In this document: piece by piece, positions 58,920-59,666 of the stretch | Numbering within the stretch: the first letter of the stretch is position 1 | Layout: each line of letters begins with the position of its first letter | Source of the DNA: Parcubacteria group bacterium Gr01-1014_38 | GTDB taxonomy: Bacteria; Patescibacteriota; Andersenbacteria; UBA10190; CAIZMI01 | DNA: 64,000 bases | NCBI GenBank assembly: GCA_007376145.1 | Contig: VMFP01000001.1 | Coordinates: 122,835 to 186,834, forward strand | Direction: 5' to 3' | Translations under genes and position numbers: made by a program | The notes under the pieces: generated by a model | Seen by the model: the letters and a program-made list of their open reading frames with translations, nothing else | The model's database searches: none | What the model was told of the DNA's origin: nothing

Positions 58920-58930
58920 GCGAAAGACCG

Positions 58931-58948
58931 ATTGTCAAACTCTTGACA
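58931..58948. promoter_or_regulatory. palindromic operator-like site TTGTCAA-actc-TTGACA
   Basis: A 6/7-bp perfect inverted repeat 12 nt upstream of the 58919 start codon. It also contains TTGACA. Confidence 0.3.
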
Positions 58949-59327
58949 CGCGCTACGGACGGTACCATACTCGCTTCCACTGGTGTTCTTTGTCATAAAG
59001 TCGTGCCGGTCAGACGGTGACGAAACTCCGAGGAGACGCGCAAGCGTCAAGAGAGTCCCGGAGGTGACCGTTCAAGCCGGTCGAATGCGCGCAGAAGGGT
59101 AGGAATAACATTTCACCTTCCAGGTGTTGCCCTCGTCGCACACAGCAGGACTCGATGAGGGAAATTCCCCACGCCTGAAGGAGGTAGGTGGAACAGTCCA
59201 AACTGCGTACACGCTTGTCTCTTCCGGCCGGAAACGACAAGCGGCGCTACGCGGGGGAGTAGCCGTCGAACGGAGAATACTGCGTGTATGCAGGAAGTTC
59301 AGTCTCAAAAGGGCTCGCGGACTCTCG

Positions 59328-59390
59328 TGGCATATTCGTGAACCTCATGAATATGTCTAGTGGCATATTCATATAAACCTCATGAATATG
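59328..59390. repeat. tandem pair of palindromic units TGGCATATTC-N10/13-GAATATG
   Basis: Unit 1 at 59328-59355 and unit 2 at 59361-59390. Each has inverted arms CATATTC/GAATATG. Probable dimeric DNA-binding sites. Confidence 0.45.
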
Positions 59391-59527
59391 ACGCGGAAGG
59401 AGTACTGCCCTGGACGGACTTCTTGATATACCGCATGAAGGGAATATTCCCCTCGACGCTTGCGAAGAGAGGAGGAACCTGCCCCTTCTAAGACTAAACC
59501 TATTCTTCTGCGCGATTTGTCCTCTTT

Positions 59528-59616
59528 CATTGTCGTTCCCAGGCACCATTGTCGTTCCCAGACATCAGGGCATTTGCTCTCTTTATGTCCGTCTGGCCGG
59601 GGCATTTGCTCTCTTT
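59528..59616. repeat. two families of short direct repeats (CATTGTCGTTCCCAG x2; GGGCATTTGCTCTCTTT x2)
   Basis: 15-nt repeat at 59528-59542 and 59547-59561. 17-nt repeat at 59568-59584 and 59600-59616. Confidence 0.5.
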
Positions 59617-59630
59617 TGTCTGGGAGCACC

Positions 59631-59666
59631 CCCGCTCGTCCCCATCGGCGAGCGGGATTTTTCTTA
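59631..59666 (+). terminator. plus-strand intrinsic terminator (8-bp stem CCCGCTCG/CGAGCGGG, then ATTTTTCTTATT)
   Basis: Perfect stem and U-rich tail on the plus strand only. Overlaps the stop of the minus-strand GT-C gene. Confidence 0.45.

Follow-up and report, generated by a model that had tools for sequence, protein, structure and literature searches.

A spacer between two GT-C glycosyltransferase genes of a Parcubacteria group genome is a probable gene for a large structured non-coding RNA

Large structured RNAs are rare in bacteria beyond rRNA, RNase P and tmRNA, and OLE, GOLLD, ROOL, raiA and HEARO each opened unexpected biology. Protein-sequestering RNAs such as CsrB and RsmZ carry repeated GGA motifs, while the divergent pairs of a small RNA (sRNA) and a gene, micF-ompC, oxyS-oxyR and gcvB-gcvA, provide base-pairing regulators of 80-220 nucleotides (nt). 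We are aware of no large structured RNA class described in the Candidate Phyla Radiation (CPR), and of hardly any description of a non-coding repertoire in its tiny (~1 Mb) genomes. OLE RNA is a ~600-nt, membrane-protein-associated RNA of Bacillota; its sequence is strongly conserved, and it lies in the same orientation as its partner genes oapA, oapB and oapC (PMC9723947, PMC12265935). GOLLD, ROOL and raiA are described as large orphan non-coding RNAs (ncRNAs) with ornate secondary structure that were recognised by comparative structure (PMC12286853, PMC10861870). Here we analyse a spacer (58920-59663) in a 64,000-nt stretch of contig VMFP01000001.1 of Parcubacteria group bacterium Gr01-1014_38. 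This whole stretch is referred to as the window, and positions without a locus name are positions in it. The spacer separates two minus-strand genes for GT-C glycosyltransferases (Pfam PMT_2/PMT), and we consider it likely, judging from the sequences of this locus and its relatives, that it is a stand-alone plus-strand gene for a large structured ncRNA, directed opposite to the surrounding glycosylation genes.

The initial annotation of the spacer listed a TTGTCAA palindrome, two CATATTC/GAATATG units, an 18-codon open reading frame (ORF), and short direct repeats followed by a terminator on the plus strand, set in an unusually long, AT-richer region. All four elements were found where it had placed them, and the GC content of the spacer is 50-57%, compared with 60-67% in the flanks. 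Most likely, the palindromes, repeats and terminator are parts of one plus-strand transcription unit. A putative promoter of this unit lies at 58943-58971 (-35 box TTGACA, 17-nt spacer, -10 box CATACT), with a predicted transcription start site (TSS) at ~58978. In a promoter scan it scored 10/12, and it was the sole match in 58500-60000. At the opposite end, a terminator scan called an intrinsic terminator at 59631-59663, on the plus strand only. The RNA would consist here of CCCGCUCG, a loop, CGAGCGGG and AUUUUUC, corresponding to CCCGCTCG-N10-CGAGCGGG and ATTTTTC in the DNA. The hairpin has 10 pairs, 8 of them G-C, followed by ATTTTTCTTA, and thus combines a G+C-rich stem with a T-run on the transcribed strand. 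On its minus-strand side GGTGCTCCC follows, which contains no T-run. The T-run adjoins the stop codon (59664-59666) of the convergent gene. An unannotated plus-strand unit producing the predicted ncRNA (~58978-59663) would explain why a terminator is present on this strand only. An unannotated small RNA had been one of the suggestions made for it, but the predicted size of ~685 nt, and of 365-540 nt in the related units described below, does not agree with a small RNA.

The predicted RNA folds far better than expected by chance. The plus-strand fold has an energy of -292 kcal/mol, compared with -236 kcal/mol in shuffled sequences (z = -11.4), against z = -2.7 for the minus strand; with 25 dinucleotide shuffles, the window unit gave z = -7.9 for the plus strand and -4.0 for the minus strand. 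In the minimum free energy (MFE) fold, the RNA begins with a pyrimidine-rich, mostly single-stranded 5' leader (58978-59001, GGUGUUCUUUGUCAU), followed by P0, an irregular hairpin of ~80 nt (59002-59083). The next helix, P1, is formed by a 5' strand CGCGCAGAAGGGUAGG at 59088-59103 (inverted repeat I1) and a 3' strand CCUAUUCUUCUGCGCG at 59499-59514. It is the longest inverted repeat of the region (16 nt, 88% Watson-Crick), and all 16 positions pair if two G-U pairs are counted. P1 encloses an inner multi-stem domain of 395 nt (59104-59498), as drawn from the MFE fold. Just before its 3' strand stands GACUAAACC, a match to the GGAYUAAACC junction motif found in the related units. Downstream of P1, a pyrimidine-rich linker beginning AUUUGUCCUCUUUCAUUGUCGUUCCC (59515-59553), un- or weakly paired in the MFE fold and overlapping two 19-nt repeats, leads to a 3' hairpin (59554-59627; MFE fold, repeat family D5) that holds two 17-nt repeats GGGCAUUUGCUCUCUUU, and from there to the terminator.

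Related loci were gathered via relatives of the upstream GT-C protein; one of them (L010) has the same sequence as L002. A long spacer of ~530-1150 nt lies between the same two genes in six genomes (L002-L006 and L011), in which the upstream protein is 64-76% identical to that of the window. One unit is present in the window, L002, L003, L006 and L011, the contig of the last stopping within the downstream gene, and two tandem units are present in L004 and L005, giving nine units in seven genomes. The orientation of the unit and the order of its parts are common to all long spacers. Each unit carries a P1 of 12-16 bp, opening with GCAG and closing with CUGC, an inner domain of 127-406 nt, the GGAYUAAACC junction before the P1 3' strand, and a U/C-rich linker such as GAGUUUCUUUGUUCC. 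A P0-like hairpin of 75-90 nt occupies the same place in 8/9 units, being absent only from L006, and UUGUUC-type motifs also occur in the similar, U/C-rich leaders of the other units. In all units P1 is followed by a comparable linker, in which UUGYYC-type motifs are enriched, and a hairpin stands ahead of the terminator. The terminator stem CCCGCU-N-G / C-N'-AGCGGG is kept in 9/9 units, and a T-rich tail follows it in all related units, the weakest being that of L005B (CTATTT). AUAUUC and AUUCCG motifs also recur across units (ATTCCG in 7/9), and the inner domain of the window unit contains self-complementary, G/C-clamped motifs at 59159-59170 and 59440-59452 (GGGAAAUUCCCC, GGGAAUAUUCCCC). 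Such motifs could be loop-loop or dimerisation sites.

Around these shared parts the sequence has diverged widely. Pairwise identity between units is 40-50%, save for L004A/L005A (75%), L004B/L005B (73%) and L002/L005A (54%), where A denotes the tandem unit beside the downstream gene and B the one beside the upstream gene. The two tandem units (L004 5948-6993, L005 2729-3752) are ~45% identical to each other. The A unit resembles the single unit of L002, and the B unit resembles those of L003, L011 and L006 in P1 sequence, a pattern that suggests an old duplication followed by differential loss.

To compare base pairing, consensus structures were calculated with RNAalifold for a B-type pair (L004B and L005B) and an A-type trio (L004A, L005A and L002). 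The B pair gave 127 consensus pairs that were 100% paired in both sequences despite ~27% divergence, with 11 double and ~20 single (G-U) changes; when the partners were slid by 1-3 columns, 35-48% remained paired. The A trio gave 99 pairs, 92% of them paired, with 23 changed on both sides compared with 9.7 in shuffles. P0 covaries in both alignments (helices 2-4 of the B pair, helix 3 of the A trio). For P1 and the terminator, the eight distinct units were aligned on the GCAG/CUGC anchors: 98% of positions were paired, and 9/20 pairs covaried compared with an expected 3.8 (0/500 shuffles). One terminator position (N:N' in the stem above) occurs as C-G, A-U, U-A and G-C, and so takes all four Watson-Crick combinations. 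An alignment of L003, L011 and L006 by MAFFT and RNAalifold was left out, as P1 was misaligned in it, and the alignments of the 3' module were too poor for a covariance model. Among the few sequences compared, and with the inner domain of the window unit set aside, base pairs are thus kept by compensatory substitutions. A covariance and structure check of part of the spacer (59300-59666) had been proposed in the initial annotation; run on the whole unit, it returned a strong plus-strand fold together with compensatory changes among related units. By the evidence of these alignments, the structure is under selection. We infer from this selection that the RNA product itself is the functional entity.

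The same data point to the strand. The MFE of the sense strand was below that of the antisense strand in 9/9 units, with sense z-scores of -4.3 to -7.9; z-scores of the minus strand were also negative (-2.7 to -6.7). In the B pair, G-U pairs made up 30/254 pair cells (~12%); read from the opposite strand, each would be an A-C mismatch. Together with the lower sense MFE, they place the RNA on the plus strand of the window.

Several findings weigh against reading the spacer as an RNA gene of this kind. The RNAalifold structures come from the same few sequences in which the pairs were then counted. We therefore folded one sequence alone and scored its partner. For the B pair, 26/46 changed pairs stayed canonical compared with 14.1 expected (maximum 25 in 5000 trials), and in the reverse direction 31/62 compared with 17.0; for the A pair, 26/55 stayed canonical compared with 16.4. 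Against the more distant L002, the same test was not significant in one direction. For the count across units, the P1 strands had been selected by eye, and the figure is somewhat inflated as a result. Both ends of the transcript are predictions, and the window and L004B are the only cases in which the scan calls a promoter in RNA sense. Measured against the E. coli consensus, which may not be that of CPR bacteria, most -10 boxes are weak; those of L003 and L011, uncalled by the scan, match that consensus at 3/6 positions only. The window unit is also the largest and most divergent of the nine. Beyond the terminator, comparison with the L002 spacer gave no significant DNA or protein similarity, six-frame comparison included; a sequence profile of the other eight units ranked the right location first, through two collinear matches that were not significant (E = 0.22 and 2.5), and a profile of the 40-nt junction did not place the window unit. 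As the inner domain of the window unit has no close homologue, its internal helices draw on folding energy, and the comparative support covers the outline: the promoter palindrome, the placement of P0 and P1, the linker and the terminator.

The unit is, moreover, confined to seven genomes of one narrow clade. A protein-based scan of genome contigs for more members found one locus. A DNA pattern of the P1 3' strand and terminator had 26 matches in JGI metagenome contigs; as the palindrome, the P1 5' strand and the junction motif were absent from all of them, these were judged to be chance; two scans of viral contigs with the same pattern gave one match and then none. Neither the metagenome scan nor the two viral scans therefore added a member. 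The viral match (L012 6981-7103) was rejected as chance, since it lacks a T-run and lies within a coding sequence (CDS) on a phage contig of high GC content, and it hints at the false-positive rate of the pattern. A further candidate, L039, was rejected because its contig is too short and its 3' end different.

The gene order around the unit is itself open to another explanation. In relatives whose upstream protein is 57-59% identical, the spacer is only 40-47 nt long and contains no RNA unit (L007 5951-5997, L008 2117-2163, L009 5969-6008). The unit is therefore an apparent insertion, in one sub-clade, into a contiguous gene pair, and it looks as though this insertion split an operon and supplied a divergent promoter for its downstream half. 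The spacer could in that case act as a cis-antisense or excludon-like insulator, in which convergent transcription and pairing with read-through mRNA uncouple the two halves and the RNA fold is incidental. The operon-like spacing in relatives without the unit is in keeping with such a role, as are the convergence of the RNA gene with the upstream gene, at whose stop codon it ends, and the divergent promoter that the unit brings for the downstream genes. On the operon strand no T-run follows the terminator hairpin, and a transcript reading through from the upstream gene would therefore be complementary to the RNA over its full length. An insulator would, however, have no need for 100-130 conserved base pairs, and it does not account for the compensatory changes and RNA-strand-specific G-U pairs, or for the tandem second units, which retain the full architecture. 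We regard it as unlikely. The initial annotation had likewise considered a transcript antisense to the glycosyltransferase operon, but the RNA as mapped does not overlap the operon genes: it ends at the convergent stop codon and starts back-to-back with the putative promoter of the downstream gene. Insulation of the two halves of the former operon by convergent transcription and the hairpin may instead be a local side effect of the RNA gene, compatible with a function in trans.

The palindrome at the head of the unit (58932-58948, TTGTCAA-ACTC-TTGACA, TTGTCAAACTCTTGACA) consists of two back-to-back TTGACA boxes, one per direction, and occurs as a single exact copy within the 64-kb window. TTGTCAA-N3-5-TTGAC is found at the head of 8/9 units in the seven genomes, and the ninth (L006) has GTGTCAA, so the palindrome named in the initial annotation is real and conserved in every unit. 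In the units it overlaps the -35 box of the RNA promoter. L004B has an RNA-sense promoter that scores 9/12 in the promoter scan; in the other units TTGAC(N), a spacing of 17-18 nt and an nAnAnT-like box were read by eye, and L004B is the only one that the scan confirms. In the opposite direction, a putative promoter of the downstream GT-C gene was read from the sequence at 58910-58938 on the minus strand (TTGACA, 17 nt, (TGG)TAGAGC). TTGACA-17-TA[G/C]A[G/C]C, preceded by TGG or TGT, fronts this gene in 7/7 genomes. The (TGG)TA[G/C]A[G/C]C box (58910-58918 in the window) lacks the canonical T at position 6 of a -10 box; it may reflect a CPR-specific promoter preference, or may not be a -10 box at all. 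The palindrome would thus lie at the heart of a putative bidirectional promoter. In L004 and L005, the second tandem units keep the full palindrome though they have neither a divergent gene nor a leftward -10 box, and for this reason it may also be a candidate binding site of a dimeric regulator, that is, an operator.

The distance from the palindrome to the downstream gene depends on the start codon of that gene. Its longest ORF (56826-58919, 697 aa) starts at GTG 58919, 12 nt from the palindrome, and the distance of 12 nt given in the initial annotation holds for this start. The source gene caller chose ATG 58847. Orthologues begin with ATG GTA CAC TC (M-V-H-S). The equivalent codon in the window is GTG 58865, and GGGAGG precedes it by 8 nt. 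On the strength of these orthologue starts, we revised the gene to 56826-58865 (minus strand; Pfam PMT_2 and PMT; protein start MVHSVRMRRW), so that the true spacer measures ~800 nt and the start codon is 67-85 nt away from the palindrome, not 12. The string TGGTACACT-N8-ATG at the start of this gene is conserved at the nucleotide level in six genomes. TGGTACACT could also be the extended -10 box of a near-leaderless transcript, but this promoter was dropped from consideration, as its conservation is equally explained by the coding of the M-V-H-S start.

The second set of palindromes belongs to a tandemly duplicated hairpin module of ~33 + 35 nt (59323-59390, plus strand; direct-repeat families D7 and D8, inverted repeats I4 and I15). 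CATATTC...GAATATG occurs at 59331-59355 and 59364-59390, with 0 copies expected in shuffles. These units, like the TTGTCAA palindrome, could in principle be operators of dimeric factors in a DNA-level spacer that controls the downstream paralogue, and the initial annotation had taken them for paired operators. Both kinds of palindrome are real and above chance, and retention of TTGTCAA in units without a divergent gene indicates that it is more than two -35 boxes. The CATATTC units, however, lie far from the start of the downstream gene (~470-520 nt) and inside the predicted transcript (~350-410 nt past its predicted TSS). They arose by local tandem duplication, and the six related genomes show no counterpart at this position, and hence no conserved DNA site. 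They are best read as a duplicated RNA hairpin. Control by operators would also leave unexplained the terminator, the folding z-scores and the covariation over ~500 nt, and we hold it to be improbable as an account of the spacer. The short direct repeats (19 nt, two copies in 59528-59565; 17 nt, copies at 59568-59584 and 59600-59616) sit in the linker and 3' hairpin of the predicted RNA, where they multiply a UUGUC / UUUGCUC motif resembling the UUGUUC-type motif of the other units.

Quite improbable, too, is that the spacer is the decaying remnant of a selfish or mobile element or of a degraded gene, with hairpins that are functionless relics. The unit has a narrow distribution and appears insertion-like relative to distant relatives, its sequence turns over rapidly, its size varies, and it occurs in tandem copies, all of which a remnant could show. 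A relic would not be expected to maintain the palindrome, the terminator stem, the domain order and the pairing, with compensatory changes, while the flanking proteins have diverged to 64-76% identity. We found no transposase, terminal repeats or protein remnant in the unit, and blastn against phage and plasmid collections gave no similarity.

We next considered whether the structure could belong to the operon strand, as a structured inter-cistronic region or long 5' untranslated region (UTR), for example as a processing site or a riboswitch-like element through which the downstream GT-C gene would be controlled. The location between co-oriented genes would suit this, Watson-Crick helices form on either strand, and the minus-strand z-scores are negative too. 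It is nevertheless very improbable: the plus-strand MFE is lower in every unit, G-U pairs fill ~12% of pair cells, and neither the T-run nor the TTGAC box fits the minus strand. A conserved promoter-like box also stands between the structure and the downstream gene, placing the structure outside the 5' UTR of that gene. The strand-specific G-U pairs and the position of this putative promoter likewise contradict the regulatory switch on the operon strand that the initial annotation had offered. A cis-regulatory leader on the plus strand does not fit either, since what lies beyond the terminator is the 3' end of a convergent gene or, in L004 and L005, the next unit.

No known RNA family accounts for the structure. 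Rfam 15 gave 0 matches at E<=1, riboswitches included, in 58000-60500 of the window and in L002-L006. At the Rfam gathering threshold, the whole window contained only a tRNA-Lys, and ARAGORN found no tmRNA. The RNA accordingly belongs to none of the families in Rfam 15, among them OLE, GOLLD, ROOL, HEARO/omega RNA, raiA, RNase P, tmRNA, 6S, SRP, riboswitches and group I/II introns. A full-text literature search returned no description of such an RNA in CPR bacteria. A tRNA-like origin of the conserved TGGTAGAGC box was rejected, as no tRNA was called and the D-stem pairing fails.

No conserved reading frame was found. In ORF-against-ORF blastp among the nine units, no ORF kept its position, frame or sequence from one unit to another. 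Even the two most similar units (the B pair) are set apart by several indels of 1 and 2 nt, which are not multiples of three. The 18-codon ORF described in the initial annotation exists (59435-59491, plus strand) and is probably not translated: it has no counterpart in any related unit, tblastn of its 18-aa peptide against the other units gave nothing beyond noise (best E = 0.16), and no Shine-Dalgarno-like sequence precedes ATG 59435. There was no Pfam match for the 43-aa ORF that encloses it, and none significant for the other ORFs of the spacer. An mRNA for a small protein, or the leader-peptide transcript raised in the initial annotation, with long structured UTRs, can thus be dismissed as scarcely credible, for although several short plus-strand ORFs are present, none is conserved, the indels break the frame, and neither a significant Pfam match nor a ribosome-binding site before ATG 59435 was found. 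In L005, public annotations place ORFs of 162 aa (2796-3284, plus strand) and 77 aa (3601-3834, minus strand) in the spacer; these have no Pfam match, are not conserved in L004, and are probably spurious calls over RNA genes.

What the predicted ncRNA might do can be outlined from its parts. It may serve as a scaffold or decoy, in which the folded domains would give shape and a protein would dock on the single-stranded U/C-rich tracts of leader and linker, with their UUGYYC-type motifs; docking of purine-rich mRNA leaders there is less likely. In the window genome these docking motifs would have been multiplied by local duplication. The large size, and a shape conserved while the sequence drifts, favour a scaffold or decoy over a classical base-pairing sRNA. 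TTG[TC]T?C occurs in 28 sense copies, compared with 16.5 +/- 3.7 in shuffles and 10 antisense copies, and is concentrated in leader and linker; six copies lie in the linker and 3' hairpin of the window unit. The motif was defined after the data had been seen, and its enrichment is for that reason only suggestive. The scaffold or decoy is a conjecture, which we put forward tentatively, from sequence patterns. Leader and linker were also matched, by duplex prediction, to the translation starts of the neighbouring cluster genes: duplexes with the start of the downstream GT-C gene had z = -2.9 in the window and -3.3 in L006, and none was found in L002 or L003. This inconsistency between genomes, which also counts against the proposed RNA, leaves regulation of the neighbours by base pairing unsupported. 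The shared palindrome may put the RNA and the downstream GT-C genes under common control.

The upstream GT-C paralogue (59664-61649, minus strand; Pfam PMT_2, 661 aa) is convergent with the RNA gene, and ENA and NCBI hold an identical protein. The GT-C pair is flanked by two large proteins without a Pfam match, at 54763-56823 (686 aa) and 61661-63910 (at least 749 aa), both on the minus strand. Together with GT2 and GT4 glycosyltransferases, an RmlD-like epimerase and a cytidylyltransferase, these four genes make up a conserved envelope-glycosylation cluster. The host is an uncultured groundwater CPR bacterium, with an unusually high GC content of ~63%. The best named relatives of the DnaK encoded in the window are from CPR/Patescibacteria, namely Andersenbacteria (69-71%) and also Azambacteria, Uhrbacteria and Nealsonbacteria. 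Elsewhere in the window, 34303-37218 (minus strand) encodes a 971-aa PcrA/UvrD-like helicase with a C-terminal match to a Cas4/PD-(D/E)XK nuclease model, an AddA-like architecture. The aspartyl-tRNA synthetase at 3187-4575 (minus strand) is only 462 aa long, matches the 590-aa bacterial model in two stretches, and appears to be without the bacterial insertion domain.

The retention, with compensatory changes, of a 0.4-0.7 kb unit that is in places doubled within an envelope-glycosylation cluster suggests a real, cost-bearing function, and genomes of ~1 Mb can ill afford idle DNA. In terms of annotation, one RNA gene would replace an 'empty' spacer and spurious ORFs, the start of the downstream gene is revised, and the operon would be split by an inserted, oppositely oriented transcription unit. 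The transcript model is testable in groundwater CPR metatranscriptomes.

Compared with the known systems, the RNA is like OLE in being a large multi-domain ncRNA among protein genes, with a function not evident from sequence, and it sits between genes for polytopic GT-C membrane enzymes. It differs from OLE in having no match to the Rfam OLE model, in evolving fast, in being directed against its neighbours from its own predicted promoter and terminator, and in its CPR host. With GOLLD, ROOL and raiA it shares a length of hundreds of nt and an ornate structure, and its self-complementary motifs (GGGAAUAUUCCC, GGGAAAUUCCCC) could in principle allow self-association; unlike them, it matches no Rfam model, is not near tRNAs or prophage genes, and is far narrower in distribution (7 genomes).

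The predicted RNA resembles CsrB and RsmZ as a stand-alone gene with an intrinsic terminator and multiple exposed short motifs, whose copies are expanded by local duplication. Its motif, however, is UUGYYC-like rather than GGA, it is 2-4x larger, it has a long-range closing helix, and the motif enrichment is modest and post hoc. With the divergent sRNA/gene pairs and the excludon it has in common a back-to-back promoter that shares a palindromic site, and a convergent arrangement that could uncouple the neighbours; it differs in its size (365-683 nt), its high degree of structure, the absence of overlap with a CDS as mapped, and inconsistent pairing with the start of the neighbouring gene. It is quite possible, though rather less likely than not, that this RNA is the first of an undescribed class: ornate, fast-evolving RNAs of ~365-685 nt specific to a Parcubacteria/Andersenbacteria-like CPR lineage, sometimes in tandem, with a palindrome-controlled promoter, co-regulated with a GT-C cluster, and acting as scaffold or decoy, possibly in a membrane ribonucleoprotein or by self-assembly. 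By sequence comparison, it apparently represents a new family of large structured ncRNA, of the general kind of OLE, GOLLD, ROOL and raiA, and the first noted in the CPR.

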